This document shows, piece after piece, positions 26,901 to 62,958 of a DNA stretch of 64,000 bases; the first letter of the stretch is position 1, and each line of letters starts with the position of its first letter. A program made the translations under genes and the position numbers. The stretch covers positions 1-64,000 of the forward strand of contig JAUCBJ010008071.1 of NCBI GenBank assembly GCA_032718475.1, written 5' to 3'. The stretch is from Nemertoderma westbladi. Taxonomy: Eukaryota; Animalia; Xenacoelomorpha. The notes under the pieces were generated by a model that saw only the letters and a list, made by a program, of their open reading frames with translations, did no database searches and was not told where the DNA came from.

Positions 26901-26901
26901 A

Positions 26902-39960: not shown

Positions 39961-41990
39961 TAATAAATTTATCTACCCAAAAATTATTAGGCTTGGCATC
40001 AGCTGGTTGCTAGGAAACTAAATCGGCTGGGTTTCTGGCAAATTATAAAATTACAGTAATACCATTGTTGGCCTGTCTGCCTGTACTATACTCAATCCCT
40101 GAATCTGGAATCAGACAATACTATCATACTGTATTCGGTGTTTTACGGTACTGGCTGAGTAACCGGTGCAGTGATTATAGATCACGTATACTGGTACAGG
40201 ACAGGCCTAATTCTGTAATTCCAGAATTCTGTAGGCCCTAATTAGCCATGCACTGCAGTGCGGACTGCGGTCCTGAATTAGTTTAGAGGGTCTGTTGGCG
40301 CCGTACCGCCCTACTACTGTCACTGTGAGACTGTACAGTACAACCGGCTGACCGGACCAGTAGCAACTGCCAACTACATAACTACCGGTACGGTACTGAA
40401 CTACGACAACACTACCGCATTTCCATGCTCCTGTCAGCAATGAAAGAAAATTAATTTCTTCGTTTACGGTTTCTGCTCTTGTTAACGGTTTAATATGTTA
40501 ATTAAAGACTATGTATTGGTACGACCGACGGCACCGGCAACTGGCATAATCAGATGTAGATGTACATAACAATCTGCCAATACAACAATAGCAATAGGCC
40601 TACCCCTACCAACCATCCATCGACTCGGCAACTGCAACCATGGAAGGTATGCGGACTACCCAGCTGACCGGCATTCTAAGTTCAGCTACCCACTACCTAG
40701 AGTCTACCCAGCTGCCCAGAGAAGTGTTGGAATTGAAATCAAACAACTCACCACCAAGGCCGCCTCTATGTCTGTTGACCTCGACTTTCGGTATCGCTTC
40801 CGCTATGGGCAAAATAGACTAACCATAACCGAGGATGAAATATTCCGGTTTTTTAATCTCACTCTGCCATCACCCAGTGCCCGGCGGTGTTGAAATTGCC
40901 ACGCATAGTACTAGTAGTGCAAGCTTAATAAATAATTAATATATGGCGATATTTCAGACCATCATGATAAGCGAAGCTCTTATTGTTAATTACATCACGA
41001 TTGAGAGTTGTCACAAATTGAATACCGTAGCAATATCAATATAATTAGACCAAAGACTTGTCACAATACGTTTCCTCTAAAGGAAAACACAATCACCAGA
41101 CTTGAGTCCTTACATAATTAATTAGTCCGACATTTGTTTGTTATACTGTGTTGTCACACCCTCTCGGTACTGTATATCAGTGAAATATAATAGATGATCA
41201 AATACCGTATTAGACTGAGCAAAAATAGAGCAAATCAATACATCGTGGGAGAAAAAGGAGAAACAAATAGATACACTAGAACGGCCTTTGTTGAAGGTAC
41301 ACTACCGCCATTCCCGTTCAATGTATCAGACCGGACATTAGGAGTCATTTCTGTATGTTTTATTAAGTAACCGGACGATGTCAAAAATATACGAAAATTG
41401 AGATTGAAAGAACGTTTTTTATCAAATGCGCTAACAGATCACTACAAAATGTCAGATCTACTGTAGCCTAGGTAGGATACCACCAGCCACTCGGTGGGAT
41501 AAATATTTCTCCATTTGACGCAACACCGCCGCGGCCGCTATGAGGGAGGTGAATACCGCGGCCGCTCCTAAAGCCGCAGGCCATCGCTAACTATATAGGT
41601 TAACTTGGGATTCTGGGGGACTTTTCGATGAAGGAACAGACCAAATTTTTTTATTTTCTCACCAGGGGAGCGGCTCGGAATTCTAAGATATTAGCAACTC
41701 TAACATTATTAAATCTAACCCTTCGACGGACACGGCGGACAAAAATCCGTCATTTTTTCGACAATTTTAAAAAATTTTTTTGGAAAGGCGCTCTACAGTG
41801 GCTCGAAAAAACCCTAGGTTATTGCTTAGCCGACGCCGGGATACGATAGAAGGGATTAATTAGTGAATTCGTTTTGTTTTTCAAAAAAGATTACCACGCC
41901 TTTTTTCCGAAAATGTCCGTCAAAGTTGAAAAAACGGACAAAATGACTTTGCGGGATCCGCTATAACTCGGCTAATATTAATCGTACTCA

Positions 41991-42165
41991 GAATCCAGTC
42001 TCCCGGGTATATCCAGCGGGTGAATGGACGCGCACTAGGCTGGCTTCTGCTAATGTTGTGTTTATTGGTATTAAATATTTGTCAATTTCTAAAGTCTATT
42101 TATAAACCAAAAGACATATAAATTTTGGCAGGTTAAACTGCTAAAGGTCTTCAAAAGCGCGTACA
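41991..42165 (+). repeat. Residual 3' 175 bp of the 5' LTR
   Basis: gaatccagtctcccggg...aaaagcgcgtaca matches 60733-60907. Confidence 0.88.
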
Positions 42166-42229
42166 ATAACAGTTATTGACTTTATTGCAGTAAGCAATAA
42201 AGTTGAAAGTACCGGTCGACCGGTAAACC

Positions 42230-44400: not shown

Positions 44401-44476
44401 GCCAACGGTCATACTGAATTACTAGACTTGCTTTAACTGTAACTATAGCAGTAGGCATTCAACCGTATAGCTAAAC

Positions 44477-47400
44477 ATGTCTGACACCCAGCAAAACCTG
44501 TCAGACAGTCTAATCGATACAACCATCTGTGACACAGATAGGAGTGTGGAGCGATTAAGAAAGGAGTTCAGCTCACCTCCTACTGAAAGAAAGGTCATCC
44601 CTCCAGTAGTAGTATCAGACCCTAAGCTAATCCAACACCGTAGGTCTATCATCGGCACTCGGGCCCAAGTCAAACGGAACCAGGAAGCAGCTGTCCAACA
44701 GCAGCAACATCCTAGTCAAGAAACTTGTTCCCAGCGATCCGATAGCTCCAGTAGTTCGGATACTGTAGAGCTGACCCCCGAACGCGGAGTGCAGATGGCG
44801 GCTACAGCCTACTCGGATCCCCTTCTCACCCTTCCTGCCGCAGTGCTAACTACTATATTGATTGCGGTGGAGGAACATCAAGCCGATTGGGCGAGAAGTA
44901 AGCGAGCGACCCAAGATAGTTATGCGGGATACGCCAGGGAAGAATTGATGTCTATTGTCGAGTCACAATGGAACTTTCCCGGACCCGGACTCCCGTTAGA
45001 TTTGTCCGAAGCTACTTGGGAAGATATACACAGGATGGGAGTGACTAAAGATACAATGGATCCAGCTGTTTGGAAGAGGTCGGCAGCAGGATATGTGCAG
45101 GGATTCTTCGGCTCCTTAGAGCGATTGGAAGAACAACTGTTTCGACAACCCCAAGGACCTCAAGAGCAGGAAGAGCTGCTATATCAAGTACGCGAAAGAA
45201 CCCTACGCATTAGACTAATCCTATCAGCCTTTGAGGAAACTTCCAAAAGAAGACAGGACACGTCGCTGCAGGTTGCTGTCAAAACTTGGTTCCAGCGGGT
45301 AGGTATCAAAGTACAAGAAACGGCCCAGTGGAAATCCCAGCTGGCTGAGAGACTAACCTATGAAGAACCAACCGATGCCACCCTTTCTCAAGTGGAAAGC
45401 GAAGTGACCGCAGAGAGACCACGAACGAGAGACGCCATCGACATTTATCTGTCCGACTATCAGCGATTCCTAGGAGACGAAGAGTTGAGGAGACGGCTGT
45501 CTGGACTTTCCCCTAATAGTGAAGGAACCCAGCTTGTGTTGGACTCAATCGATGCTGAAATGTTAGCTGCAAACCAAGCTAAATTTGATGAAAAACTTCG
45601 CCTCGCTAGAGTCCAGGAAGAAGAAGTAAAGAAAAGGCGGATAGAGGACCGAAAAGCAGCGGCAATCGCAGAAGCAGAAGCGGAAAGAAAGGAGGCAGCG
45701 GCAATGGCAGAAGCAGAAGCAGAAAGAAAGGCGGCAAAGGCAATCGCAGAAGCAGAAGCGGATAGAAAGGAGGCAGCGGCAATGGCAGAAGCAGAAGCAG
45801 AAAGAAAGGCGGCAAAGGCAGTAGCAGAAGCAGAACGGAGAGCGTCTGAGGAGACCACACAACTGGAGTTGGAAAATCTTCAAGAGACGCAAGACAACAT
45901 AAATAAACAGTTAACTGCTAGTCACATGCAGATGATGAGAAGATCTACTCCCAAACGCCAGGGATACACATCATCGGAGGAAAGCGAAACCACCGATCCT
46001 GAAGGCGGAGGAAATAGATCTCGTCTAAGCAGGCGTAGAAAAACATCTCACCGTCACAAATTGCCTGATTTGCCCCCAGCTGTTAGAAGACAACTAGCTA
46101 GCACAGACTTAAGTAGTATAGAACCTACAGACCAAATTATTAAGATCAAAAAACTCCCTACTATAGTTGATGAGCCTGAAATAATTAGGCCTGTCGTTCC
46201 CAAAGTCACTCCTGTGCTAGAGACCCCTGTACTTCCAGAGCTTAACTCTAAATTCCCTTTACACAGTACTACACTGCCTGTACCCGGTAGAACAGTCCAT
46301 GAGAATATCCCTGTCCTGGAAGCTGAGAGAGAAATCAAAGATTTGTCTCCTGTCGTCCCGCGTCAGCCCGCTACAATGTTGGCGACTCCCGCTTCGGCGG
46401 TCGAGTGGGTAGAGGAGGGACGGCGGGGGATGAATCTCCTGCTCGGACAGATGCAGGAGACTGTCCACCAACTTAAGGGAACCGTAAGGGAAGGTAGGGC
46501 AGAATTGCAAGAAGTGCAGCAAAGTATCGCGCTAGAACGCGACAAATTAGTCAATATACAAAAAGGTATACCAATACCCCCTGTAAAATTGTGTCAACCT
46601 GTTAGGTCTGAAGTATTACATGCGCAAAGTGTGGAGCCTACACGCATCTATACTGCTAGTGAAGTAGAAACTCCTATAGCAAACCCTATTAAGGGTGATT
46701 ATAGACCTGTTGTGGATGATATTCCCTATAGACCTGATAATGATCCGAGAAATTTATATACCGATAATTCGATATTAAATAACACGATGGCCCAAGAAAG
46801 CTTTACGCGTCAGATGGCTAGAACAGAAGCCCGCCAAGCGGTCAAAGTGGGAGAGATCGTCAAATTCAATGGAGATGAGATGAAATGGTTACCTTTCAAC
46901 GAATATTACAAAGACAGCATACAGAACTCTGTGCTATCTAACGGAGAGAAACTTAGGTTCCTCATCAAGTGCTTGGAAGGACCTCCCAAGTTAATGGCGT
47001 TAAAGTTTATTGGACATCCAGAAGGATTAAGACAAGTTTGGGATACATTAAACATCAGGTATGGTAACAAGGATAACATAGCTAAGTATTTGTATGCAAA
47101 ATTAGTAGCCCCCCGAAACTTCCTTAGTAGCGGGATTATAGAGTTTTCCGATGAGATTCAGGAGATTTGTAGACAATTGGACTGGTTAGGTAAGTCTCAT
47201 GAATATCAGAGTTCCATGGTTATTGGAGCAGTAGTCTCTACTTTACCAAAGGGTGGAGTATGTACACGCTGGGACAAGAAAGTGTTGTATATGAGTGAGC
47301 AGCAACGACGAAGCCCTACCATGGCTGATCTCATGTCCTTCTTAGATGGTGAAGTAAAACTACAACTCATCAAGCAGTCCAGAGAGAAAACATCGGAAAA

Positions 47401-48121
47401 TAAGGTAAGTGAGAAACCCGCTTCTAGGAGAAGAGTAACACCAGTGTGTTACACTGACGACGGCGAAAGCCAAGCTTCTCAAGAAGAGGACAGCGGGAAA
47501 GACACTGACAAATTTTACTACGTTAACAAAACCCCAAAAGACGTAAGTAAATACAAGGCTCGAACCAACGTTAGGAGAGAACAGGTTGCCAAGACCCCTC
47601 CTCAGTCTCCTAACAGAATGCACGGAAGAAAGCCCGAAGAAAGAACGAGAGTGCATCAGGTTACCCAAGGTAAAGTGAGTAACATAAAACCTAACTGTGC
47701 GCTGTGCGACGGGACCCACCGTTTGAGTGCGTGTGCTGAATTTCTAAAGAAATCCCTTGTAGACAGACGTGCAGTCGTGTGGGATAAGCGGTTATGCTAT
47801 AATTGCCTCAGACCAGGACACCAACGGCGAACCTGTTACTCCGACGTAAAGTGTGCAAAGTGTAGCGCGAAACATCACATCTTGTTACACAGTGAGTTCG
47901 AACGAGACAACCCGAGTCAGGTAAGTGAGCCCGAACTACATGTCCAATTCAGTGATGTAAACGACACTGATCAAGAATCTGAGATGGAAGGATTCTATAC
48001 TGACGAATTCTCCGACGCCAACGAATCCTGTTATCTAATCAATACCGCAGTGTATCGAGCACTTACTTATGAAAAGGACACCGTTTCAGGAGAACAGCAA
48101 AATAGCAGTGCTAGTGACTAG
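44477..48121 (+). CDS. Bel/Pao Gag-like protein (1214 aa)
   Basis: DUF1759-like KFNGDEMKWLPF...EKLRFLIKCLEG...L..RYG; three Bel-type knuckles CALCDGTHRLSAC, CYNCLRPGHQRRTC, CAKCSAKHHILLH; long coiled-coil N-terminal extension. Confidence 0.9.
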   Translation: MSDTQQNLSDSLIDTTICDTDRSVERLRKEFSSPPTERKVIPPVVVSDPKLIQHRRSIIGTRAQVKRNQEAAVQQQQHPSQETCSQRSDSSSSSDTVELTPERGVQMAATAYSDPLLTLPAAVLTTILIAVEEHQADWARSKRATQDSYAGYAREELMSIVESQWNFPGPGLPLDLSEATWEDIHRMGVTKDTMDPAVWKRSAAGYVQGFFGSLERLEEQLFRQPQGPQEQEELLYQVRERTLRIRLILSAFEETSKRRQDTSLQVAVKTWFQRVGIKVQETAQWKSQLAERLTYEEPTDATLSQVESEVTAERPRTRDAIDIYLSDYQRFLGDEELRRRLSGLSPNSEGTQLVLDSIDAEMLAANQAKFDEKLRLARVQEEEVKKRRIEDRKAAAIAEAEAERKEAAAMAEAEAERKAAKAIAEAEADRKEAAAMAEAEAERKAAKAVAEAERRASEETTQLELENLQETQDNINKQLTASHMQMMRRSTPKRQGYTSSEESETTDPEGGGNRSRLSRRRKTSHRHKLPDLPPAVRRQLASTDLSSIEPTDQIIKIKKLPTIVDEPEIIRPVVPKVTPVLETPVLPELNSKFPLHSTTLPVPGRTVHENIPVLEAEREIKDLSPVVPRQPATMLATPASAVEWVEEGRRGMNLLLGQMQETVHQLKGTVREGRAELQEVQQSIALERDKLVNIQKGIPIPPVKLCQPVRSEVLHAQSVEPTRIYTASEVETPIANPIKGDYRPVVDDIPYRPDNDPRNLYTDNSILNNTMAQESFTRQMARTEARQAVKVGEIVKFNGDEMKWLPFNEYYKDSIQNSVLSNGEKLRFLIKCLEGPPKLMALKFIGHPEGLRQVWDTLNIRYGNKDNIAKYLYAKLVAPRNFLSSGIIEFSDEIQEICRQLDWLGKSHEYQSSMVIGAVVSTLPKGGVCTRWDKKVLYMSEQQRRSPTMADLMSFLDGEVKLQLIKQSREKTSENKVSEKPASRRRVTPVCYTDDGESQASQEEDSGKDTDKFYYVNKTPKDVSKYKARTNVRREQVAKTPPQSPNRMHGRKPEERTRVHQVTQGKVSNIKPNCALCDGTHRLSACAEFLKKSLVDRRAVVWDKRLCYNCLRPGHQRRTCYSDVKCAKCSAKHHILLHSEFERDNPSQVSEPELHVQFSDVNDTDQESEMEGFYTDEFSDANESCYLINTAVYRALTYEKDTVSGEQQNSSASD

Positions 48122-48124
48122 CTG

Positions 48125-49388
48125 TCCACCTGGTGAAATACTGGATATAAATATTGACGTTAGATTTATTATTTACCTTCTTATGTTTATGAGGGGGGGG
48201 GGGGGGGGGGGGGGGGGTAGTGGTGCAAGGACTTGGATTGTGGATTATACTTAAATTATAATTAGATTTAAAATTAGAATGACATAAATACATATTTTTC
48301 GTGCAGAGTGCCAAAGAGACTCACCCGGGTGAGACAAAAAGGAAGCGTGACCCCGCGCCCGGGTGAGACAAAAATGGAGAGTGTCCCCTCGCCGGGTGTG
48401 ACAAAATGAAGCGTGACCCCGCGCCCGGGTGAGACAAAAATTAAGCGTGACCCCGCGCCCGGGTGAGACAAAAAATGAAGCGTGACCCCGCGCCCGGGTG
48501 AGATAAAAATGGAGAGTGACCCCTCGCCGGGTGTGACAAAATGAAGCGTGACCCCGCGCCCGGGTGAGACAAAATGAAGAGTGACCCCTCGCCGGGTGAG
48601 GCAAAAATGAAGCGTGCCCCACGCCCGGGTGAGACAAATAATTAAGCGTGGCCCCGCGCCCGGGTGAGACAAAAGATGAAGCGTGGCCCCGCGCCCGGGT
48701 GAGACAAAAATGGAGAGTGACCCCTCGCCGGGTGAGACAAAAATGAAGCGTGACTCCAAGCCAGGGTGAGACAAACAAATTATGAGTTGTAAGGGACAAA
48801 TATCTATATATAAATATTTCAGTTTAATAAGAACAATTTTAATTTATTTAAAAATAAAGATTTGCTTGTGATTGAACGAAGTTCAGAATTTAGACTGTTC
48901 CACATTAACGATCCTTGAAGAGCCAGTGATTGATGAGCCACATTGAGTCGAACTCTAGGTAACCTATATAAACCTGATGCTGCTGAGCGTGTGTTATGAG
49001 AATGTATATCACTAAATTTTGTAAACAAATGGGATAAAGAACCAGGAACATTATGGTTTATATCATACATTAGTTTACAAACTTGGTATTTATATAACTT
49101 CTCTAGAGGTAACACCTTTAGTTGGCGGTACAGGGGTAGTGAGGATGTACGGTAGTGACTAAATGTAATTACTCGTAAAATTTTATTTATTTTTGTCCTT
49201 ATAGGCTTTAAAATTGAGTCACACGCAGCCCCCCAAACAATTAAGCCATAATTAGTAAGAATTCATAATTATTGAATTCACAATTATAATATGTAATATA
49301 ATAATATATGTATAATATAATATATAATTATAATAATGGAATATATGGAATATTATATATATAATATGAATTCACAATTCATGAATAC
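48125..49388 (-). mobile_element. 5'-truncated L2/Crack-like LINE inserted between gag and protease
   Basis: 48819-49260 minus: LPLEKLYKYQVCKLMY...HSHNTR...QGSLMWNSL...KLKLFLLN*, a typical LINE RT C-terminus; interrupts KIAVLV.../VRVHGP...ALLDSGS. Confidence 0.75.
48320..48775. repeat. ~36-bp minisatellite (cgcccgggtgagacaaaaatgaagcgtgacccc), ~12 copies
   Basis: Direct tandem array within the inserted segment. Confidence 0.92.
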
Positions 49389-49937
49389 GTAAGAGTTCAC
49401 GGTCCTAACAAAAGTTACATAGTGAACGCACTCCTTGACTCCGGCAGCACAGGAACATTCATCGATCAAGAACTAGCCGAAGATATCTTTGCTGGACAAC
49501 CCAAATTCCGGACTAAATTGAACATGTCAGGAATTATGCAGGATTGGAAATCTACCCTAACGGCAGACTACTATGTAGGTGTGTTGTCCACCCCCCCAGG
49601 ATAAATTAGGAGCACAAGGTATAAGGTCGGTAAAAATGGTGGCTATAAAGAACTTCGCTACTACTCAAGCAGACCTTTATAATTGGGACGAGGATGAGAG
49701 CATCCAACATCTTAAGATACCTCGATTCCAGACAGATTATCCTGGAGGTGCAAATACTCATCGGCCAAAATGCGCATGAGGCGCTCGAGACATTGGAGAA
49801 ACGGCCTGCTCAACCGCAGCCACTGCAAACCTATGCGGTAAGAACTAGAGTAGGTTGGTACTTTACTGGCCCTTCCCGCAGAACTCTCGAAGAGAGAATG
49901 CCACAAGAACGAATATAACCAAGTAAACGATGGGGAA
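49389..49937 (+). pseudogene. Bel/Pao aspartyl protease region, frameshifted
   Basis: VRVHGPNKSYIVNALLDSGSTGTFI; ILIGQNAHEAL...AVRTRVGWYFTGP spread over three successive frames. Confidence 0.85.
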
Positions 49938-52900
49938 GTGGAGAGCAGTGAGGTGGACGAACTAACTGAGGGAACACCATACTCCTCAGATAATGACGAC
50001 ATCTACCAACTCTTCGATGAAGAGAACACCATCGACCTACTTACAGAAAACAAAACGTGGAAAAATCAGGTGAACCTATGTCAACTGATTCGCCCATCGG
50101 AACCCATTGATTACAATGACGAACTAAATGACGAGATAGAGCGCTACAACGCTAGAACTCGGGACGAACTAGCCGTACGATTCTTTACTCAAGAACTGGT
50201 AGAGCCCAATTCATACGATAAGGCTCTATCGATAGAAGAAGAAAGAGCCAAGCAAATCCAGGAAACAACTACACGTTTTTTAAAGGACCAAGGTAGATAT
50301 GAAATCAGCCTACCATTTCGAAAACGAGAACCTAGATTTATAAATAACAGACCCTTGGCAGAGAAAAGAATCGCTCAATTACATCGACGCCTTACGGCTA
50401 ATGCTTCAGCTAAAGAAATGTACCAAACTCAGTTGAAGAAATTTATAACAAAGGGATACGCGGAGCGAGTACCGGAAGGAACACCAGTGACTGAGAGAAC
50501 GTATTACTTAACACATCATTACGTTCCCAAACCCGGTAAACCCCATGAAGTACGAGTCGTATTCGATGGCTCTGCTCTATATATGGGCCAATCCCTCAAT
50601 TCCGAGTTGTTACCAGGACCCAACTTACTCCAATCCTTGTTGGGAATACTTTTAAGATTAAGACAATATTCCATCGCGTTCGCCTCCGATATAGAAGGAA
50701 TGTTCTTACAAGTCAAGGCGCTGGATAGAGATAGAGACAGTCTGAGATTTCTGTGGTGGCCTGAAGGAGACCTCAACCAGAAACCGGTAGAGTACTGGAT
50801 GACCATCCAGGCTTTTGGGATCATATCAAGCCCTTCCAACGCCTGCTCCGTGGTGCGAACCACTGCGAATGACAACCGAGACGCCTTCTCCAAAGAGGTG
50901 ATAGACAACATCAAACGTAATATATACATGGACGACAATTTAAGGTCCCTTCCATCAGTAGAAGAAGCCATAGATGTCGCGAAAGGAACGGTAGAGTGTT
51001 TGAAAAGAGGTGGATTTCGACTGACGAAATTCACCAGCAACTCCCGTGAGTTTCTGGAAGCGATACCGGTAGAAGACCGAGGAGCGAAAGACCTAGACTT
51101 AATAAAGGACGATCTTCCTGAAACCAAGACGCTTGGCTTGAAGTGGGACACTGAAAGAGACATCCTGTTTTTTCAGCTAAAACAGCGAGATAATCCAGTT
51201 CGGACCAAACGGATTTGTTTAAGTATCCTGAGCACTTATTTCGACCCATTGGGATTTATTAGCCCAGTTATATTGATTGCTCGGAGTTTAGTACAACAAA
51301 TGTGGCTTGAAAACCACTCATGGGACGATCCGCTTAAGGGAGAACTGTTGAAGAAATGGATGAAATGGGAAGATTCTCTACCGGCCATCGAGAACTTTAT
51401 AATTTCCCGTGCATATTTTGGTCATGTTCTTCCTACGTATTCCTATCAACTCCATGTGTTTGGAGACGCCAGCGACATGGGAATAGGTATAGTAGCATAT
51501 CTGCGAGTCGAAACTCCGGATGGAATCAAAGTCGCCTTGGTTACCTCTAAGGCATTGATTAACAACAAGTTAAAGGTTCCTCGAGCGGAGTTAAAGGCGG
51601 CTTTATACGCTACAGCCATCGGCCGGAACGTAACAGAACAAATCGACTATCCACTGGAGAAAACGGTTTATTGGACCGACGCTTTACTCGTGTTGGAGTA
51701 TCTAACCAATGAAGTCTGTCAGTTCAGCGTTTTTGTTACTAACAGGGTAGCTATTATTCTTAGTCGCACAAAGATAGATCAATGGAGACATTGTCCTGGT
51801 ACGATTAATCCAGCCGATATCGCCTCCAGGGGAGCAACTCCACAGGAACTGATAGATACTCCAGATTGGTTGGGTGGACCCGACTTCCTGAGCAAGGAAG
51901 AGGATGAATGGCCTCCTCACCTTACTACGGCGGAGATTAGACAAGCCAAGGGAGCGGAGACAGTCAAACCTAAAACCCGGGCGAGTAAATCGAAGTTATT
52001 TAAACCGACGATCGATCTATCTGTATTACATACTTCCGGGAATGATGCTTCGGATCCACAATCCCTCGACACAAATAAGTCTGTTGTGGAAATTAGAGAT
52101 AGAGATTGGAAATCTGGAATACCAGACATCTCGCAAGGAATCTCACCCCTGCTGCAGAGAGCAATGCATCACTACAGTTCCTGGAATCGGCTCTGTAAGG
52201 CCGTCACGTATTTAAGGAGATGTTTTCATCATCACTACTCCAGGACGAAGACAATTAGTGATACCGCTCCATTGACATCTGCGCAAGTTCATGTTATTAA
52301 AAATTTACCCAAATATAAGACATCCGACCGGTTTCTAAAGGAGAAAATTAGTCACCAGGAGCATGAAGAAACAAATAAGCAGATACTGAGACTCCTGCAA
52401 TGCTATGAGGATTCCGATAAGTATTTCCTGTTGTTGAGAAATCCGCAGATGCGCTTAAGGGATCGATTCTCTAGCACAATGATAGATGGGTTAATACGTG
52501 TTGGAGGAAGGCTCACCAATGCGCCATTATCCTTTGACACTAAATTCCCTATACTCATTAGAAATCTTGAAGTACAAATCAAGATGATTGTAGATGTTCA
52601 CAGTAAACTTTATCATGCTGGTAGAGAACGAGTTCTTCGTGAAATTCGAACTCGCTATTATTTTGATAAACCCCGTAGAGCTCTGAACCAAGTTCTTAGG
52701 AACTGCATACCCTGTAGGAAAGCATTCAGTAGGCCTTTAACACAGCGAGAGGCAGAATTACGTAGGGAACGAGTAAGCTTCTATGAACCACCTTTTACTA
52801 ATACTGGTGTAGATTTATTTGGCCCTATTGAAGTATATCGTGCTAGGACTATAGTCAAGAGATGGTGTGTCATCTTCGTATGCATGACTTGTAGAGCCAT

Positions 52901-53810
52901 CCATCTCGATATGGTGAACGATCTATCTACCAACAGCTTCGTCTTAAGTTTACGCCGACAGATCGCTCGCTTCGGGACGAGTAATACCATGAGATCGGAT
53001 AAGGGAACGAATTTCATTGGTGCCAATAACGAAATACAGGCTTACGTGAAGGACTGGAACCAAAGACAGGTGGACGATCAGCTAAGGATAACAGCGTCTA
53101 GCTGGACCTTCAACGCCGCCGACGCCCCTTGGTGGGGAGGAAGTTGGGAGAGATTAATTAGAAGTGTCAAGACTGCATTTCACTTTATAGTGCCATGCCG
53201 CGCGTATCTCACCGACGAACTTTTGCGGACATTAATGGAGGAAATAGCTGCCTATCTCAACGAGAGACCGCTTATGCCAGTCTCATCGAGTCCCGATTCC
53301 CTGGAAGCGCTAACACCCGCGCACTTCCTACTGAAGAAACCTGTAGCCATGGTCCCACGATCGGAGATTGCCGACGGAGACGAATACTGCCGCCGAACTT
53401 GGCAACTTATGCAGTTGCTATCCCGTCGTTTCGCTGACCATTTCGAGAAACATTATCTGCCCACGCTACAACTTCGAACTAAGTGGTTTGCGCAGCAAGA
53501 AAACGTCAGCGCCAGAGATATGGTGCTTATTGTAGATTCAGACCTCCCACGTAAATGGTGGCAGACAGGTCGTATCATCGAGACTCACATCTCGGATGAT
53601 GGTTTAGTACGCTCGGTAGAACTCGTCGTCATGCGGCGTAACTTCAAGAAGCCAGGCATAATCTTTGAGACGCAACAACTCAACCGCCCAGTTGGTCGTT
53701 TATGTTTACTGGAAAGAGACAGAGAACTCTCCGGAAACTATGGAAGGCAAGACACTCTTCCCACGATCACCTCCCTAATTCCTCAAATATCTAGGGACTC
53801 CCCAACGTGA
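49938..53810 (+). CDS. Bel/Pao Pol: RT, RNase H (Pao-type) and integrase (1290 aa open frame)
   Basis: YYLTHH, RVVFDGS, SLNSELLPGPNL, DIEGMFLQV, FGIISSP, YMDD, LGLKW, FDPLG, LHVFGDAS, PRAELKAA, WTDA, NPADIASRG, H...CIPC, GVDLFGP, SDKGTNF, GGSWERLI, DGLVR. Confidence 0.96.
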   Translation: MESSEVDELTEGTPYSSDNDDIYQLFDEENTIDLLTENKTWKNQVNLCQLIRPSEPIDYNDELNDEIERYNARTRDELAVRFFTQELVEPNSYDKALSIEEERAKQIQETTTRFLKDQGRYEISLPFRKREPRFINNRPLAEKRIAQLHRRLTANASAKEMYQTQLKKFITKGYAERVPEGTPVTERTYYLTHHYVPKPGKPHEVRVVFDGSALYMGQSLNSELLPGPNLLQSLLGILLRLRQYSIAFASDIEGMFLQVKALDRDRDSLRFLWWPEGDLNQKPVEYWMTIQAFGIISSPSNACSVVRTTANDNRDAFSKEVIDNIKRNIYMDDNLRSLPSVEEAIDVAKGTVECLKRGGFRLTKFTSNSREFLEAIPVEDRGAKDLDLIKDDLPETKTLGLKWDTERDILFFQLKQRDNPVRTKRICLSILSTYFDPLGFISPVILIARSLVQQMWLENHSWDDPLKGELLKKWMKWEDSLPAIENFIISRAYFGHVLPTYSYQLHVFGDASDMGIGIVAYLRVETPDGIKVALVTSKALINNKLKVPRAELKAALYATAIGRNVTEQIDYPLEKTVYWTDALLVLEYLTNEVCQFSVFVTNRVAIILSRTKIDQWRHCPGTINPADIASRGATPQELIDTPDWLGGPDFLSKEEDEWPPHLTTAEIRQAKGAETVKPKTRASKSKLFKPTIDLSVLHTSGNDASDPQSLDTNKSVVEIRDRDWKSGIPDISQGISPLLQRAMHHYSSWNRLCKAVTYLRRCFHHHYSRTKTISDTAPLTSAQVHVIKNLPKYKTSDRFLKEKISHQEHEETNKQILRLLQCYEDSDKYFLLLRNPQMRLRDRFSSTMIDGLIRVGGRLTNAPLSFDTKFPILIRNLEVQIKMIVDVHSKLYHAGRERVLREIRTRYYFDKPRRALNQVLRNCIPCRKAFSRPLTQREAELRRERVSFYEPPFTNTGVDLFGPIEVYRARTIVKRWCVIFVCMTCRAIHLDMVNDLSTNSFVLSLRRQIARFGTSNTMRSDKGTNFIGANNEIQAYVKDWNQRQVDDQLRITASSWTFNAADAPWWGGSWERLIRSVKTAFHFIVPCRAYLTDELLRTLMEEIAAYLNERPLMPVSSSPDSLEALTPAHFLLKKPVAMVPRSEIADGDEYCRRTWQLMQLLSRRFADHFEKHYLPTLQLRTKWFAQQENVSARDMVLIVDSDLPRKWWQTGRIIETHISDDGLVRSVELVVMRRNFKKPGIIFETQQLNRPVGRLCLLERDRELSGNYGRQDTLPTITSLIPQISRDSPT

Positions 53811-54334
53811 TACGTCTGGAGTGGGTGTATGACTATATTGTTTTATCTATTTTTATTATATTTTTATATGCGAACTTTATTATGTACTTTATTATAATCG
53901 TTTTTATTCAATTTTATTTAGTAGAAGGTTATTTTAGATTATTTGGTATATTAGTGCAATATATTAGTGTTTATTACGTAATTACATATATAATATATAT
54001 TTAGTATGACGGCGAGAAATAATTTTTCTCTTTCCTTACTGTCCGTATCATATTATAAATACGTGACTACAGTAAGATGAAATGTCCGTACTTATTAAAG
54101 TACAATAAAGCCACTACTATATTCAAGTATTATTGGTAGGCAGAGTATTAGGAATGCAAAGTTCAGATCCTCGTGTCTCGGCTAAACCAAGCTCTGGGTA
54201 GACCTTGGAAACGACTTGCCTCTTCACACTGACATTGCTTCGTGCGATATTGCTCTTCTACCTTATATTAAATAATACATATAGTAGCGTGATGTCCATA
54301 TAACAGTAGCGTAAAACGCAAATAAATCTGTTAA

Positions 54335-54615: not shown

Positions 54616-55437
54616 TTATCATATATATTATTTTAACATCAAATAATAAAATTCACGGGAATAAATTTAAATTCATATTTTAAATGAATTTCATAAATTG
54701 TCGTTTTGTGCAATTTATAACATTCCCAAAATTCCATTAATTAATAGATCATGGGAGCGGAGATTCATCCTATTGAGTGTATTAGAGTGCGAGAATCTCC
54801 AACATATAGTCAATAGCCGATAAAATTAATAAAATCATGCATAAAGAGGATATTGACAATTAAAGAATTACTATTAAATAGCATCCCAGATCTGTATGCA
54901 TGAGAATTACCCTAATTCTACCGCTAGCATTCCATAATGTCACCATAGCAACACCCACGCTAGAATTAGAAGCAAGTTAAGAGAACAATAGAAAGCTTGT
55001 CCCATTGCATAGCATAGAGAATACATAGCACACTGTTAGTATCCAAGGATACACAGTAATAACGTGACATTCTGGAAGGCACTGACTAACGGACAAATGG
55101 CCTGTATGTGTACAATTGGTGACAGTTGTGTGGAATTTGTGCGTTTATAGGTGAATGTTACTGCTAAAGTATGTTTACAGTAGCTAGTCGCAATTGTAAA
55201 AGTAGCCCAACTCTCCTATAGAAAGAACCTCAAGTGGATCCAAGCCTTTGGGACGGACAGTGGAGTGACTTGTGCCGGTTATCGTTGTCGTGCTGTTGCT
55301 ACATGTTGGCGTAAACACCGCGACGACGGTACATCGGCGCTGAGAATCCCACTGTCCGGGGGCAAAGAGAGGTAGGCAGCGACGCCCGCTTGCCTAAACA
55401 TAAACTCATTTGATATTAATAAACTCAGATAGCAGAT

Positions 55438-57690
55438 ATGACGGAGTTGATAGAAGATGATCTTGGTATTAGGGAGCGATATACTCTACCTTTGCAAGCA
55501 TTTGTGGATAGCTTAATACGCGGTGAAGCCGATCCAACCATTACGGAGGACGATGGTCGTTATATCGAACCGCCGATGTCCCAAGAGCAACTTGCGCGTG
55601 AATTGGATTATCGAAAATTCACCGCTCGCTATACGAATCGTAAGGGTACGTATATGGACTTCTTAACTACCGGCCATCCTATCGATTTACATGATACGGA
55701 CGATGTAGATACAGAGAGGGAAATGGTTCTATTTAAATATCATACCCAGCGGAGTCGTAACGATAAACCGAGAATAGATCACGAAAATTCTATTCGTAAT
55801 AGACTGGAAAGAGAAAACGTTGAAGAACCGGATAAACGCATCGACTTCAACGAATACCTAGAATTTTTGAGAGAAACCTATCTCAACATCGCCAGTCAGC
55901 AGAACCTAGAGACTCGATATCCTCAAGGTATACATCATGACCCTGTGGTAGAACTCAAACGGCTCTATTTCACGATGATGTATCTTACCGCCGATCGTCC
56001 ACTACCTGTTATCCCGGATAGTTTTGAACAAATGGAAGAATATTGCAAAACTGGAGAACGATCACCCGCGTTTCCTCTACAGGACGTACGTCTTTGGTAT
56101 TATTGTGACGAATGCCCTAGACCCAACCAACAAACTGAAAGACACAAACAACCGCGGAGACGTTGCGCTAAACACAGCTTTACGCGTTACACTTACGGGA
56201 GTTTCGAGCGAAACCTGTTCGACGTACCACCTACGATCGCTCGTCTTAAACGATCACTGAATAAACCCATGATCAGAGTTCCGGAATACTCGGTCAGGCC
56301 TCCTCATTCCCTAGTGAGACCTCAAACTCTTGATCCTAACAGTATCACTGATCCTCCCGAACTATATTCCCTGTTCAAAGACTTAGTGTTACCCGAACAA
56401 TTAATCGGTGGTGCTCCGGTAGTGGGTTCGTTAGACATTCGCCCATCCTACTTAGCCGGATTGGGACGCGGGCAGCTAATATCGCCCTTTGATCCTTACA
56501 ATCGTCCAGGATTAAACCCGATGCAACCCGCCACGGAAGTCGAGGAGAGCGTTATAAGAAACGCTTTAGACGCTATTCGACAGAAGATCGGAAAGGGAAC
56601 ACAAGATTGTTTAGAGAAACGTAAATTACAACAACAAGTCCAATCGGTGAAGGAGTTAGCCTTGCCACAGTTCGATAGAGAAATCCAAAACCTCGAGGAA
56701 GACATCGAGCTTGGACGCACGTATTCTCTACAAGAATTTTTAGATGAACGCTTACAGAGACAAGCGGAAGAAAATCTACTCGAGGAGAAACACACGAAAA
56801 TGGACGAGAGAGAAGAAGCCGCTTTAGCCCAACCTGAAGCTCAAATCCTTATGACGGACCTCTACTCTCAAACCATTCGTCATCCCTCGATGATTCCACA
56901 TTTCGGAGACAAACTTTTCGCGACGATACAACCTCAACCGGTTGATATCAGTACAGGATCGCAAAATCTTATCGCTGACGCCCCTATGTTACAGCGTCCG
57001 CCGATAGAGGCCGCTCGTGTTGACGGTATACTCGTTGAACCTCCGGACAATCGAGCAGATCTTGTCCGTCGTATGGTACACGATGTCAACATACGCGCTA
57101 GACCTTTACAGAACTCGTTTTATGGGATTAAAGACCACCCTTATTACGTTAATCTGACTCAATATTATATGGTAAAACCAGAAGACCCGACGCATAATTT
57201 AAAGTTTCCACCACTGATAAATCCTCTAGACATTGTCGAACTCGAACAATTGCAGAAACATCTGGATCAGTTAGTAAAAGTAAACTCATTTAGAAAACCA
57301 TATAACATTTCTAGAATCGAGAAAGATATAGAACCCCCTTATAATCTCGATGGATTTATTAAAACTCGATTAGTCCATTGGAATCTAGATGTATTATTTG
57401 AAGAAGAGAAAATACAAAGATATGGAAATGTGGAGTCGTATACCACTCGGCACATGAAGTATAGTGATCTCCCTGACGCTAACCAATGCGCCACCTTGTG
57501 GCATCCAGTAGGGATGACCCTAGAGAACGCCACCAAGGAGTGGAATGAAACTCTTAATGTTATTGAGATGTATGGAGTTGTCACCTACGATAATGAAGGT
57601 AGCGTTCCGGTCGGAGAACTAGGAACTACGCGCATGATCCACATACGCGGATTAGCTGGTTCTACCCACGTGTTTACTCGACGTGATTGA
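55438..57690 (+). CDS. Retrotransposon accessory ORF3 (750 aa), unknown N-terminal region; C-terminus holds the ExoI motif of a DEDDy 3'-5' exonuclease
   Basis: Long intact ORF inside the LTR-bounded unit; CDEC...CAKH motif, coiled coil, C-terminal VVTYDNEG...MIHI; no signal peptide or TM segment visible. Confidence 0.8.
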   Translation: MTELIEDDLGIRERYTLPLQAFVDSLIRGEADPTITEDDGRYIEPPMSQEQLARELDYRKFTARYTNRKGTYMDFLTTGHPIDLHDTDDVDTEREMVLFKYHTQRSRNDKPRIDHENSIRNRLERENVEEPDKRIDFNEYLEFLRETYLNIASQQNLETRYPQGIHHDPVVELKRLYFTMMYLTADRPLPVIPDSFEQMEEYCKTGERSPAFPLQDVRLWYYCDECPRPNQQTERHKQPRRRCAKHSFTRYTYGSFERNLFDVPPTIARLKRSLNKPMIRVPEYSVRPPHSLVRPQTLDPNSITDPPELYSLFKDLVLPEQLIGGAPVVGSLDIRPSYLAGLGRGQLISPFDPYNRPGLNPMQPATEVEESVIRNALDAIRQKIGKGTQDCLEKRKLQQQVQSVKELALPQFDREIQNLEEDIELGRTYSLQEFLDERLQRQAEENLLEEKHTKMDEREEAALAQPEAQILMTDLYSQTIRHPSMIPHFGDKLFATIQPQPVDISTGSQNLIADAPMLQRPPIEAARVDGILVEPPDNRADLVRRMVHDVNIRARPLQNSFYGIKDHPYYVNLTQYYMVKPEDPTHNLKFPPLINPLDIVELEQLQKHLDQLVKVNSFRKPYNISRIEKDIEPPYNLDGFIKTRLVHWNLDVLFEEEKIQRYGNVESYTTRHMKYSDLPDANQCATLWHPVGMTLENATKEWNETLNVIEMYGVVTYDNEGSVPVGELGTTRMIHIRGLAGSTHVFTRRD

Positions 57691-59680
57691 TTATTCCTTT
57701 GAAACTCTCACCGAAACACAAAGGAATCTCCGACATGGACAATTCGAACTCGCGCAGCGTTACGTCATTGACACCGAACGCAAACCGGCCATGGGTATCG
57801 ATGGATCGATGTTACCCCAGCCCGCACTCGAGATGTTGTTCAACGAAAGAATCCTTAAAATCGGCTCAGCTGTTTATGGAGATCTCCAAAACGACTTTCG
57901 GAATATGGAGAACATTCCATACCCTTTCGTTGATACTCAGCTGATTGCTCCCTGGGCAGAAGGTCGAGGTTTCTTCCGCACCATGTATGCTAATACGTCT
58001 AGCAACATTACAAAGGTGCAACGAACTTCCATCGGACATCTTGCCTTTCAGGAATACGGATGGAATTTCAAAGTCGGAAATCCCATTAACTATCAACAAG
58101 TATACGGAGACCATTATTCTCGATTATACTTTGATGGACCATTGACCGCACCTGGCGCCGTGTATAGCTTCATGAGTGTTCCACTCCGTCCCTCCTTAGC
58201 TATATACACGATCTTTGAAAACACCGCACTTGCCGGTTGGCTAGCCGATGTGTGCAGTCGTACTATACGCGCCCATCCATTAATACTTGGGACCAAACTC
58301 GCTAAGCTAGATGAACATAATAAATTCATCCGCTTCGAATGTTTCCGGCGATTTTTAACCCCATTCCGCAACGTGGATAGCCAATTTAAAGACCGCGCTT
58401 TGACCAAGCTCAGCCTAAGAAACTCAGCTGCAGAGAAGTTGGATAGCGCTGGATTCGCCATTTTCAAAGAGATTTGTATATCGAACTTGCACTCCTCTGT
58501 TATACAAAGACCTCGAATCCCCACAGGTTATTCTGTCGTGGAAATTCAGACAATAGGTCCACCTGAAGAGACAGACACGCCCACCTCAGCTATGCACTTG
58601 GAAGACGAACCAATATGTCTAGAATCTGAGGAGATTCAGCCTATCGCGCCCCGGAACAGCGACAATGATTACATCATAGAATGGTATCAAGGTCCACAGT
58701 GTCTCACTGCGTACGATTATCGACATGCCAACTATGTTTCTAGGCAACGTTGTCGGTTATGCGCATCGAGAGACCATGATACGCCCATGGACACAAACGT
58801 CCGCTGTTCCTATTTCCAAGAACAACCGACTATGGAAATTTATTGCGCATATTGCAGACTCAATAACTTGCACATTTTTGCGGTTTGCCCTCAATTTATG
58901 ACTCAATGTCACCATTGTCAACTAAAGGGACACGCCAGTTTCGATTGCCCTTTTAATCGCGATTTGGAAAGCGTAGATGAAATGATCACACTACGTTACA
59001 TCAGAGTTTGGGAAGCGAACGCTGATTTACATTGTGATTCGCGCCATCGTTATTATCCTGGACGCGCTTACGAAGGAGTTTATGCGTTCCATCCTTATCT
59101 ATTCGCTTCTGTCGAACAGAAATCACGCATATCGAGTTACGAGCTACTGAAGCGCGTCGGAGAATGTATTTCAACCAAATTCGTACGCAAATTTCTCAGG
59201 AGTGTTAATCCTAGCGACCTTCATTCCTATAACTTAATCAATTATATCCGTCAGGATCCGGACTATGGAGACTTATTTGTTAACTCACACCCCGAGTTAC
59301 AGGAAGTATATCGACGGCCTTACGAATACCGAGCCCGCGAACGCGAGTTGGAAAGAACCATTAAACCCCGGAGGTTTCTAACTGCCTATGGTCCACCCAC
59401 GGCTCTCGTTCAGACCACTCGTAAAGGACCCGTAAGAGCGGCTGTCTTAAAACGAGCTCTCAAAGCCGTTAGACCCCTCTCCCCCGACGTTGATGTCAAT
59501 CAACCCGGTACTTCGACTGGCGGATACACCGACCATAATCCTACACCCTCTGATGCAATCATATTGCACCCTTCACCCAGGAGTTATAGCCCTCCTTGTA
59601 AAGTGGCTCGCCCCAAAGAGAAAAAGACTCTGGCTAGCTTTAAAAAACTGCGTAAACGCCGTCCGCGCAAGAAAGACTAA
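57683..59680 (+). CDS. Accessory ORF4 (665 aa): rest of the DEDDy exonuclease (ExoII/III), three CCHC-type zinc knuckles, basic tail; probably continuous with ORF3
   Basis: LPQPALEMLFNERILKIGSAVYGD, FVDTQ, SIGHLA, PLRPSLAIYTIFE; CRLCASRDH...C, CAYC...H....C, CHHCQLKGHASFDC; KKLRKRRPRKKD; starts at GTG overlapping the ORF3 end by 8 nt in the +1 frame. Confidence 0.78.
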   Translation: MIDYSFETLTETQRNLRHGQFELAQRYVIDTERKPAMGIDGSMLPQPALEMLFNERILKIGSAVYGDLQNDFRNMENIPYPFVDTQLIAPWAEGRGFFRTMYANTSSNITKVQRTSIGHLAFQEYGWNFKVGNPINYQQVYGDHYSRLYFDGPLTAPGAVYSFMSVPLRPSLAIYTIFENTALAGWLADVCSRTIRAHPLILGTKLAKLDEHNKFIRFECFRRFLTPFRNVDSQFKDRALTKLSLRNSAAEKLDSAGFAIFKEICISNLHSSVIQRPRIPTGYSVVEIQTIGPPEETDTPTSAMHLEDEPICLESEEIQPIAPRNSDNDYIIEWYQGPQCLTAYDYRHANYVSRQRCRLCASRDHDTPMDTNVRCSYFQEQPTMEIYCAYCRLNNLHIFAVCPQFMTQCHHCQLKGHASFDCPFNRDLESVDEMITLRYIRVWEANADLHCDSRHRYYPGRAYEGVYAFHPYLFASVEQKSRISSYELLKRVGECISTKFVRKFLRSVNPSDLHSYNLINYIRQDPDYGDLFVNSHPELQEVYRRPYEYRARERELERTIKPRRFLTAYGPPTALVQTTRKGPVRAAVLKRALKAVRPLSPDVDVNQPGTSTGGYTDHNPTPSDAIILHPSPRSYSPPCKVARPKEKKTLASFKKLRKRRPRKKD

Positions 59681-59758
59681 CTGTTTAGAGTATTTACATA
59701 TATTAGAAACTGTGATTTTTGTATATTTATAAACTTGAATCCCATTTTCTGGGAGCGG

Positions 59759-60907
59759 TGTAAACTTTATAAGTCCCCCTCGTCCGCAAAGTACCGTTAT
59801 AGGTGTTTTAACGGACATAAAAGTCATTCTTCTGTATGTGTGCTTTGGCGGACATGGTAAGGCAAAAAACCCGCAATGCGTCAAATACCCTGGCACAGCT
59901 TAGCCTTGATGATTCAGATTACGACATCTAACAGCTGGTTGCTGACATGGAAACGGCCATTGGACACATGGTTCTTTGTTTAGCTTAACAGCCAATCAGA
60001 GCGATTTTTTCTGTCGATGTGGAGATATTTGGCAGATCATGCTAGGAGTGTTCAGTCTTACTGTTTTTTCTTGATACTGTTTTGTTGTTTCTATCTAGGC
60101 CAGGAACACCGGCTCTAGAGTCAATTCGTTTCAGACTTTAGAAGAAACATTAGTAGGCTTAGATTATAGAGCGTATAACTATTATCTTAACAACTCAATC
60201 GGCACATATATTGTCATATCATATCTTAACCTACCGTCTTAATGCTTTTTACTGTTGTTATTATTTTGTATCAGTTGGTTGAATATTATTTGGAGAACAT
60301 CTATAAAGAACCCAAATTTCCCAATTTTCTTGATACACTACAGGTTAGAGAGACAGGTTACATATAGCGATTGCGACTTATATTATTGTGGTTTGTAGTG
60401 AATTTAATGCTATTTGATAATCACTACATGAGTCAATTGCTGTTCTCTTTATATATGATAAAATTCATTGACAGTCGGCAGATTAGTGTGCATGATTGTG
60501 ACTGATAACTAAGCATTTCCTAAAGAATGCGCCTCATACGTGAATCATAAGCCTTACCGACTTACCGTTGTGTTTAGTATAAGTCATATCTCTGTTTACC
60601 TAGATAGAGCGTCACGTCCTAAAGGAACTGTTAATATTTCCCGAAAGTGAATAATATTGGTCAGAAATTATTTATTAACGATCAATCGAATAATACAGTA
60701 AGCTTACACTGCAATAACAATCTAAGCCCTCCGAATCCAGTCTCCCGGGTATATCCAGCGGGTGAATGGACGCGCACTAGGCTGGCTTCGGCTAATGTTG
60801 TGTTTATTGGTATTAAATACTTGTCATATTCTAAAGTCTATTTATAAACCAAAAGACATATAAATTTTGGCAGGTTAAACTGCTAAAGGTCTTCAAAAGC
60901 GCGTACA
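59759..60907 (+). repeat. Putative complete 3' LTR (~1149 bp), TGTA...TACA
   Basis: Preceded by purine-rich gggagcgg (PPT-like) 70 bp after the ORF4 stop; 4-bp terminal inverted repeat; last 175 bp match the 5' remnant. The left boundary is inferred. Confidence 0.65.
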
Positions 60908-62958
60908 ATTATTGAACTCTGGTATGATTATTGATTATGTGAATTATTGCCTAATACATTGAATTGGGTAAACTAAAAAATAATACATACACATACCAAC
61001 GAACCAACAACATGCATAGAATCTAGTAATTGTTATATTGTTATCAATATTTCAATATTTTTATTATTAATTAAACAAGGAAATGCATTTTTCACATTTT
61101 AAATAAATTTACCCCAAGATCCCGTTGTACCATATATGGAACGTCTCTAAACTGAATGAAGATAATATGAACATTATTTAATTTTCATCTACTAGTTCAT
61201 TTGTATCCCAATTAAGGTATTTTGACAAAAAAATAATTTTATTTACCACAGAAATTAATTCGGGATCGAAAGGGTTAATGAAGTATTAATTGCCATTTAG
61301 TATTAATAACATATAATAAGTTCATTGCAATTTCAAAACATTGAAACTATAATTTTCCGATTTTAAGACAAAATTAGGATGAAACTTTAAGTATCTCTTT
61401 GTGGTCCTATGGAATCTGAACCGGTTATTACGTTACGGTATTTTCGGTAATACGCAATTATTTTTTTCGGAATACAGTAACGTAACGTAATTTGGAAATT
61501 ATTCCGTAACGTAATACCGTAACGTAACGTAACGTAAAACTGTAACTTGCCAATGATACGAGATAAAAGCAGTTAATTATGTTAGTTGCAGTAAAAAAAA
61601 CGGCATTTTCAGCTTTTCCAATATAGTTTCTAATTAATTAAAGTGATTTGCCTTAAGAGATTTGTTTTTTTAAATTGATCTAAACATAATTTACTTAATA
61701 AAATGCCCCTTTTCTCCACCAGGGTTTTTTCTAAATATGTTTTAGAGAAATTTTTAAATGAAAATAGCGATTTCTAAATTTTTTAATTTGTTTAGAAATA
61801 TTTATAAAACTAAAAATTGAAAGTAACAAATTTTTTTACTTTACAGAGTTTGAAATAGAAACACCTATAAATCAGAAATTAATATTACTTAATACATTAG
61901 CCATATTTAATTTTTGTTTGTCACCAAAATCGACCTTGAAACTCTAAATCTAATTCATCATCATCAGTTTCAGTTATACCATGGAAACTGGACGCAATTC
62001 CCGCCTTGGCGAATTAATATCCCGCCTCAATGTTAAATTCTCAAGTTAGGGAAAGAATCAGGTTACAGTGACACGATATTTTAACCTAAACAATAAACTA
62101 AACACAAAGGAACAGGTTACAGTTTTATTTTTAAGAGTAAATCAGCTGTTATTTGCGTCGAATTTCCCCTGGAGAAGGATGAATTTTTATTTCGTCCAGT
62201 TTCCCCCTTATCTGACCATGGAATACTCCATAGTATTCCATGGTTTTACCAATTCCTATAATATCAGATGAACTCATTTGTGGTATTATTTTACGTAGAT
62301 TGACATAGACTGCATACAATCATTACAGTCTAAGAGTGTTTCACTGTCATTCCCGTAATTTAAAGTCTTTTTAGAGCACTTTTAAAGGAAACTTATGAAA
62401 AATAATGGCTGTAGTTGATTAGGTGCAGTTAGCTGAGGCTGTGGGTCGTATCGTTACAGTAGAAAAGGACCAAGTGCGAACGGGAGGTAATTTTACCTGG
62501 AACTTTAGGCATTCAATTTAGGCATTCAACCTGACCTGGGTGAATGAAAACGGCAACATTGGAAGTTTTAAATTACCTTGATAGTTTTGGAAATGCATTT
62601 ACATGCGCTAAATAATGAAACCTGGGTGTTTTTTAATATAGAAATCCGTTTAAATTGAAGCCATCTGTTATTGGTTACGGTATCAATTATGATAAAATAA
62701 CATTACCAATAATCTGCCTACAGAATATATGATACTGAACTAGAGAAGTTAATTGAGCGTTATGATAATAATTTGAACAAATTTCCCCTCCAGTTCTTTA
62801 TGTAACAAAGAAAATATAAGCATTTAATTGAATTTCAACAACAAGAACTTTAAACGTATTTATCTCAAAATTGTTTGTTCCGCGTGGCGAGACCTCTAGT
62901 ATTCACTCAGTTGTTGTTGTTAATTTCTCGTTAGATTTTGGTATTAAGAATTGATGCG

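Follow-up and report, generated by a model that had tools for sequence, protein, structure and literature searches.

The 64,000-nucleotide stretch analysed here (the window; positions 1 to 64,000 of contig JAUCBJ010008071.1 in assembly GCA_032718475.1 of Nemertoderma westbladi) contains a high-copy BEL/Pao retrotransposon, about 19 kb between its repeats, and past its pol gene lie two long open reading frames (ORFs), ORF3 and ORF4, which raise the question of whether they are two genes or the pieces of one and what they encode. ORF3 (55423..57690, plus strand, first Met at 55438) is taken as the N-terminal part of an accessory gene; its residues 1-650 match no family in Pfam or NCBIfam and its tail has a candidate ExoI motif. 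ORF4 (57656..59680, plus strand), as the C-terminal part, holds the remainder of a putative exonuclease domain, zinc knuckles, and a basic tail. An earlier reading of this DNA, here called the original prediction, had placed a DEDDy 3'-5' exonuclease across the ORF3/ORF4 junction and explained the break by a single extra T at about 57673. On balance we favor the proposal that ORF3 and ORF4 are the halves of one BEL/Pao accessory gene of about 1,400 residues, broken by a short deletion, and that it would encode a DEDDy-type 3'-5' exonuclease that binds metal, bears zinc knuckles, and likely trims RNA 3' ends to the benefit of the element.

ORF3 and ORF4 overlap by 35 bases and ORF4 lies one frame on. 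Sister copies were viewed through contigs from four of the seven runs listed, and the stretch was present in part in six of the seven. At the junction 31 pieces were listed out of a total of 31 plus 1460. All five of the listed contigs that bridge the junction with at least 31 letters on each side of 57,680 (one in run X4 and four in X5) carry the same short length difference of several letters, and its size accounts for the frame shift between ORF3 and ORF4. A one-base indel was not found among the differences listed at the junction, and the extra T was therefore given up in favor of a short deletion relative to the sister copies, placed at 57678..57681 (plus strand). Loose contig ends cluster at 57,679-57,681 in runs X1, X3, and X4. 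Because one bridging contig, over 166 bases, has just 1 further difference from the window, the deletion at 57,680 is either recent or else an assembly fault.

Substitutions were examined in two tables, one listing the best-supported 40 of 1506 rows and the other the best-supported 40 of 50, and from the table made by wide mapping 3 of the 40 rows were dropped because they fell outside the ORFs. Before the break, 18 of the 21 listed substitutions are at the third codon position of the ORF3 frame (p 1e-6) and 20 of the 21 are silent, while after it 15 of 19 are at the third position of the ORF4 frame (p 6e-5) and 14 of 19 are silent; across the whole of ORF3 the third position takes 24 of the 32 listed. 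Both sides of the break are under purifying selection, each in its own frame. Since the bridging contigs share the length difference and the selected frame switches at the break, ORF3 and ORF4 are likely to run on as a single frame in intact copies, with a length of about 1,400 codons. Thus the idea of one gene running through the junction was upheld by frame continuity and selection, with a lesion other than the one proposed. Contigs of the same species contain many diverged copies of the family and many internally deleted forms. Over 55000-60000 the accessory gene is represented by many derivatives with internal deletions, and the summed depth is higher at the gene ends. The N-terminal region of ORF3 (55438-57400, about 650 residues), which is also under purifying selection, has one C-x2-C pair at residue 228, and in the ESM Atlas residues 1-650 gave nothing above 0.76.

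A search of the ORF3/ORF4 read-through against 1.84 billion representatives gave three matches. One of these, P0003 (E 7.8e-6), is a protein of 648 residues from a single 9.4-kb ENA contig; the other two, P0002 and P0004, are repeat proteins of bacteria (SprB, fn3), and we discarded them as matches due to compositional noise. In a comparison of the three proteins P0003 and ORF4 were 27% identical over 194 residues (E 2e-11), and the alignment of ORF4 residues 1-230 with P0003 had a score of 151, which none of 1000 shuffles reached. A second alignment of the two proteins, over a Cys/His cluster, was reached by 1 of 1000 shuffles. In the window this cluster (58751..58948, plus strand) consists of two CCHC-type knuckles (58844-58888 and 58907-58948) with one C-x2-C pair upstream, and in P0003 it matches the zinc knuckles of nucleocapsid proteins and Air2. 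Since both parts are common to P0003 and ORF4, we read the exonuclease-like domain with knuckles as the predicted architecture of a family. The original prediction had included neither the knuckles nor the N-terminal part of about 650 residues that belongs to the same protein. Word-index protein searches returned nothing for ORF4 or for a two-sequence profile, built from P0003 and the head of ORF4 only, and the P0003 query returned only P0003; neither plasmids nor contigs from viruses, metagenomes, or prokaryotes yielded a related locus.

The five residues named in the original prediction were located correctly, with D57589 and E57595 each starting a codon of the ORF3 frame and D57881, Y58205, and E58217 each starting one of the ORF4 frame. 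They lie, all on the plus strand, in an ExoI candidate, D57589-x-E57595 (57589..57597), an ExoII region with K-x-G-S-x4-D57881 and a DTQ motif (57857..57940), and an ExoIII region, Y58205-x3-E58217 (58184..58222). A local alignment of the ORF3 tail with P0003 sets VVTYDNE on ILSIDVE with the D-x-E in register. When the ExoI motif was placed without gaps together with the preceding strand and the helix, the window site came tenth of 3823 overall and first of the 115 placements in the ORF3 tail; the family profiles did not pick it up. No more than 200 codons from ExoII, two D-x-E motifs come after a hydrophobic strand, and D57589-x-E57595 is the only one at a workable distance. The other, VIDTE (57770), was not accepted as ExoI because it is 37 codons from ExoII as against 57-68, and ORF4 has no D-x-E at the ExoI distance. 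From its position, the selection, and the continuity of the frame, D57589 and E57595 are likely to be ExoI.

The assignment to the DnaQ-like DEDDy family and the mapping of its motifs, both made in the original prediction, were supported from several sides. When P0003 is aligned with 50 domains of the family, its D62, E64, D130, and Y229 fall in the columns that hold D, E, D, and Y in 48 of the 50 rows, and E233 falls in the column that holds D in 49 of them. The pairwise alignment of P0003 with ORF4 carries D130, Y229, and E233 onto D57881, Y58205, and E58217 of the window; this mapping was used for ExoIII of the window because the large alignment misplaces that part of ORF4. The replacement of the ExoIII Asp by Glu, which had been pointed out from the window, is thus present in P0003 as well and, being common to two proteins only 27% alike, is a family trait and not decay of this copy. 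HH-align of the two-sequence profile with 30 PF01612 domains gave 92% (E 6e-7, 48 columns), as against a peak of 2.3% in 60 column shuffles. The same profile, run over 301 proteobacterial genomes, matched 138 of them at E of 1 or below, mostly at profile positions 56-100, and RNase D homologues made up at least 26 of its best 30 loci; 4 of the 30 were without an RNase D match, and the rule of taking the longest frame may have picked the wrong frame in some of these. In NCBIfam, residues 55-100 of ORF4 weakly match RNase D TIGR01388 (E 0.018). In the ESM Atlas, residues 25-290 of P0003 adjoin three eukaryotic clusters and one PF01612 cluster (0.94; 172 of 256 features); the family is named on 34% of the members of that cluster, and all ten of the best named matches belong to the family or its clan. 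A family-guided model of P0003 was confident over about residues 31-160 and 221-260, and its listed PDB matches by Foldseek, namely, Egalitarian, EXD2, EXD1, RNase D, Rrp6, NrnC, WRN, and Pol I, are all of the DEDD type. From Egalitarian to WRN the E values run from 5.5e-6 to 1.4e-4, a span of about 30-fold, with the first three at the top, and the viral structure matches were concordant with the DEDD type. The model is compatible with a DnaQ/RNase H-like fold and does not fix the subfamily; the narrower WRN/Mut-7/EXD label of the original prediction is not singled out by it over RNase D/Rrp6. Sequence searches of the PDB gave no exonuclease match, and a match to glycoprotein Ib (E 0.047) was rejected.

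A number of observations weigh against the proposal of a single gene for a DEDDy-type exonuclease. In the wide mapping only 2 of the 5 rows listed after the break are at the third position, which is no excess. The ExoI motif of the window is not significant alone, as 435 of 1000 shuffles score equally, and it is about 97 codons from ExoII, a spacing that is 68 codons in P0003 and 57-62 among family members; to accept it one must suppose that about 30 residues have been inserted ahead of ExoII. The original prediction had pointed to PF01612, and no Pfam exonuclease family was matched by ORF3, by ORF4, or by the two fused in a read-through with an X at the break, while P0003 reached 11.9 bits at PF01612 as against a cut-off of 23.6. 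The statistical support spans only about 50 columns around ExoII, P0003 is the only outside relative found, the unguided single-sequence fold of P0003 was poor, with a predicted local distance difference test score of 35, and the guided model was made with RNase D-type rows and hence is not independent. Finally, the residue at ExoIII is Glu both at 58217 and at E233 of P0003 and not the Asp of the family. Since neither the ExoIII Asp nor the Pfam cut-off is reached, we do not class the protein, on its sequence, as a canonical member but call it a DEDDy-like variant, with D-E-D-E plus Tyr.

What then would such a protein do? A change of Asp to Glu at ExoIII can lower activity. We predict that the Glu-bearing site binds metal and probably cuts, because proteins about 27% identical have kept the Tyr as well as acidic residues at all four positions, unlike dead EXD1 proteins, which read SDLN and AELE at the acidic set (PMC4712191). 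The substrate would be RNA, since the knuckles resemble those of nucleocapsid and Air2 and the domain has affinity to RNase D. The main rival explanation, which we think rather improbable, is that the exonuclease fold is that of a weak or dead enzyme and that the protein, like EXD1 or Egalitarian, serves as an adaptor that binds RNA and together with the knuckles holds, shields, or localises element RNA or sequesters small RNAs. The Glu in the window and in P0003 would fit this, and so would the highest-ranking matches of the model in the PDB, Egalitarian, EXD2, and EXD1; moreover, EXD1 lacks nuclease activity and binds RNA as part of the Piwi-interacting RNA pathway (PMC4712191), and the putative catalytic residues of Egalitarian are dispensable for RNA binding (PMC13186709). 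However, the dead EXD1 proteins are without the acidic set whereas in the family of ORF4 and P0003 the D, E, D, and Y are retained together with an acidic residue at the fourth site, and the gaps in the Foldseek ranking are small and come from a guided model. It is less probable still that the protein is a DNA exonuclease in the cycle of the element, for proofreading of complementary DNA (cDNA), trimming of its ends before integration, or removal of the primer. The same family includes DNA exonucleases, namely, WRN and the proofreading domains of Pol I (PMC5408684), and some of the weaker profile matches are in frames of about 950-1000 residues, the size of Pol I, but the best profile matches are RNase D genes, and the gene stands apart from pol and is fused to knuckles like those of nucleocapsid and Air proteins.

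Two further explanations concern the gene itself. If ORF3 and ORF4 were two genes, or were joined only by programmed frameshifting, the ExoI-like motif would be there by chance, as its lack of significance alone allows, and a junction like that of the window could be common among the 1460 shorter pieces beyond those listed. This explanation is largely refuted, and we give it hardly any weight, because the five bridging contigs share one length change that explains the frame, one of them with that single other difference, because the selected frame switches at the break, and because ORF4 by itself has no D-x-E where ExoI should be. A little less improbable, although still very unlikely, is that ORF3/ORF4 make up a mobile unit of their own that came to lie within the BEL element. 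For this, 1.6 kb of non-coding DNA lies between pol and ORF3, and a junction that resembles a polypurine tract (PPT) and a TG stands straight after pol. Against this, the unit is on the same strand as gag and pol and similar to them in G+C content, overall and at third codon positions, it lies inside repeats that are 97% identical, and repeats of its own were not found. The original prediction had put forward trimming or sequestering of piRNA/siRNA 3' ends, or processing of transfer RNA primers or cDNA, as possible roles. Returning to the proposed RNA exonuclease, we favor, at somewhat short of an even chance, silencing RNAs of the host, or the precursors of these, as its target; ends of RNA, primer, or cDNA that belong to the element itself are a possible target with rather lower probability, and other targets are unlikely.

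The carrier is assigned to BEL/Pao because its gag has DUF1759 and its pol has Peptidase_A17, DUF5641, and an integrase zinc finger. The gag gene (44471..48121, plus strand) is a frame of 1,216 codons with DUF1759 at E 2e-12, and pol (49854..53810, plus strand) has 1,318 codons with reverse transcriptase (RT; YMDD), Peptidase_A17 (E 5e-36), the integrase zinc finger (E 2e-7), and DUF5641 (E 3e-18). PF05380 (Peptidase_A17) is the BEL RNase H (PMC3985635). The window has the BEL-type order of domains in gag/pol, namely, protease, RT, RNase H, followed by integrase. Between gag and protease there is an interruption (48130..49370, bounds approximate, no strand assigned) made of a 34-bp tandem array and a reverse-strand frame, which we take to resemble the 3' end of a non-LTR element (one without long terminal repeats, LTRs); a G run was also seen beside these. 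The motif LLDSGS, presumably aspartic-protease-like, is in a 79-residue frame of its own (49365..49604, plus strand), separate from the pol frame. Because of this interruption at about 48130-49370 and the protease-like motif in its own frame, this copy is dead for reasons other than the break between ORF3 and ORF4. Upstream of gag there is a 5' leader of 2.3 kb (42231-44359) with tandem arrays of periods 38, 287, and 123.

The ends of the element were defined by a 181-bp direct repeat, an LTR or the end part of one, whose 5' copy (41983..42167, with the 181-bp repeat at 41987-42167, plus strand) is 97% identical to the 3' copy (60729..60909, plus strand) with its TACA end at 60904-60907. The repeat does not start with TG, no purine tract is ahead of the 3' copy, and no TGG-type primer-binding site was found within 300 bases of the 5' repeat, so that priming of the element may be unusual. 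Hairpins were seen immediately past the 5' repeat (42167-42230), again with no such site near, and no transfer RNA genes are in the window. Just past the pol stop is a short purine-rich run followed by TGTA (53818..53829, plus strand), which is a weak lead to a PPT and the start of a long 3' LTR. From this run with TGTA, the TACA end, the flanks of the element (41977-41986 and 60904-60913), which agree at 5 of 6 bases, and the repeat without a TG start, it may be supposed that the ORF3/ORF4 gene lies inside a 7-kb 3' LTR with a shrunken 5' partner. This is doubtful, and it stays no more than a lead, because a strict PPT scan from pol to the 3' repeat gave 0 matches and the run at 53818-53829 fails it. 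A bolder form of our proposal, which we regard as unlikely, would be that BEL/Pao elements carry an undescribed family of exonucleases with zinc knuckles and a Glu-substituted working site, able to counter the host's defence by destroying or trimming its silencing RNAs, the gene lying perhaps inside such a 3' LTR of about 7 kb with its 5' partner shrunk to about 185 bp.

The element is bracketed by a short inverted pair, TAACCCTT / AAGGGTTAA, at 41716 and 61270, which resembles the ends of a TTAA-type DNA transposon that would host the insertion. The DNA flanking the element has frames like those of long interspersed elements, and satellites. Two long frames, at 34637-37774 and 6953-8425, presumably carry endonuclease/RT-like or RT-like motifs of non-LTR elements. 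At 25014-26951 on the minus strand there is a low-complexity frame of 645 codons, possibly a large host exon, and at 10909-14300 an 88-bp satellite in about 40 copies.

The Juno, Vesta, TelKA, and Mag lineages of rotifers are gypsy-type, whereas the carrier here is BEL/Pao. In bdelloid rotifers a DEDDy ORF3, in which DEDD has become DEED and whose activity is unproven, has been described in the Juno and Vesta LTR elements and in Athena/Terminon elements in a paper that lists those four lineages (PMC5408684), and the reports are repeated in reviews (PMC6431247, PMC5718144); the rotifer precedent named in the original prediction is thus in print. Like the rotifer ORF3, the gene here is an extra ORF past pol with an RNase D-like DEDDy domain and an altered acidic motif, and Cys/His motifs have been noted in some of the rotifer ORFs (PMC5408684, PMC6431247). 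As far as the published descriptions can be compared, it is the fourth residue that has changed here (D-E-D-E), unlike in the rotifer DEED, and the protein differs in having about 1,400 residues, of which about 650 at the N-terminus are without a family, and CCHC knuckles. Selection on the rotifer DEDDy ORFs was not examined in the available part of PMC5408684. In the literature searched, outside of which were repeat databases and subscription papers, we found no report of a DEDDy-type gene in LTR elements other than the rotifer families or in BEL/Pao, and it is possible that a BEL/Pao exonuclease gene has been annotated before. A DEDDy ORF in Cer13, the other precedent that had been named, was not found in the same search; the available text of PMC11662393, PMC9094657, and PMC3315495 mentions RT, integrase, or a phlebovirus-like env for Cer13, and that of PMC7084138 and PMC13195028 had nothing relevant. 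Cer13 and Atlas (PMC9094657) are BEL/Pao elements that also have extra coding capacity past pol, but there the extra gene is a phlebovirus-like env whereas ORF3/ORF4 has no membrane-spanning stretch, the maximum 19-residue hydropathy being 1.2. A role as env was rejected because a hydrophobic anchor is lacking.

Compared with the cellular members of PF01612, namely, RNase D, Rrp6, WRN, and EXD2, the protein shares the ExoII D, the DTQ, the ExoIII Y, and the predicted fold and has a candidate for the ExoI D-x-E, but it differs in the ExoIII Glu, in insertions before ExoII and ExoIII, and in a Pfam score below the cut-off, and the HRDC and helicase domains of the RNase D/WRN family were not detected by Pfam in the window proteins. 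It is like EXD1 and Egalitarian in that these are the top structural matches of the guided model, and both act in transposon-related RNA pathways (PMC4712191, PMC13186709). Unlike the ORF3/ORF4 product, however, they are host proteins, the acidic residues kept here are lost in EXD1, and the Lsm and LOTUS-like domains were not detected here.

These results extend the arrangement of a retrotransposon-borne DEDDy domain from rotifers to BEL/Pao, in a high-copy family and with purifying selection, and in P0003 they provide a natural relative that can be used for an assay. If small RNAs are indeed the target, the gene would be an enzyme of an animal transposon aimed at host silencing, and if the site is dead it would be a transposon-borne RNA adaptor like EXD1 or Egalitarian.

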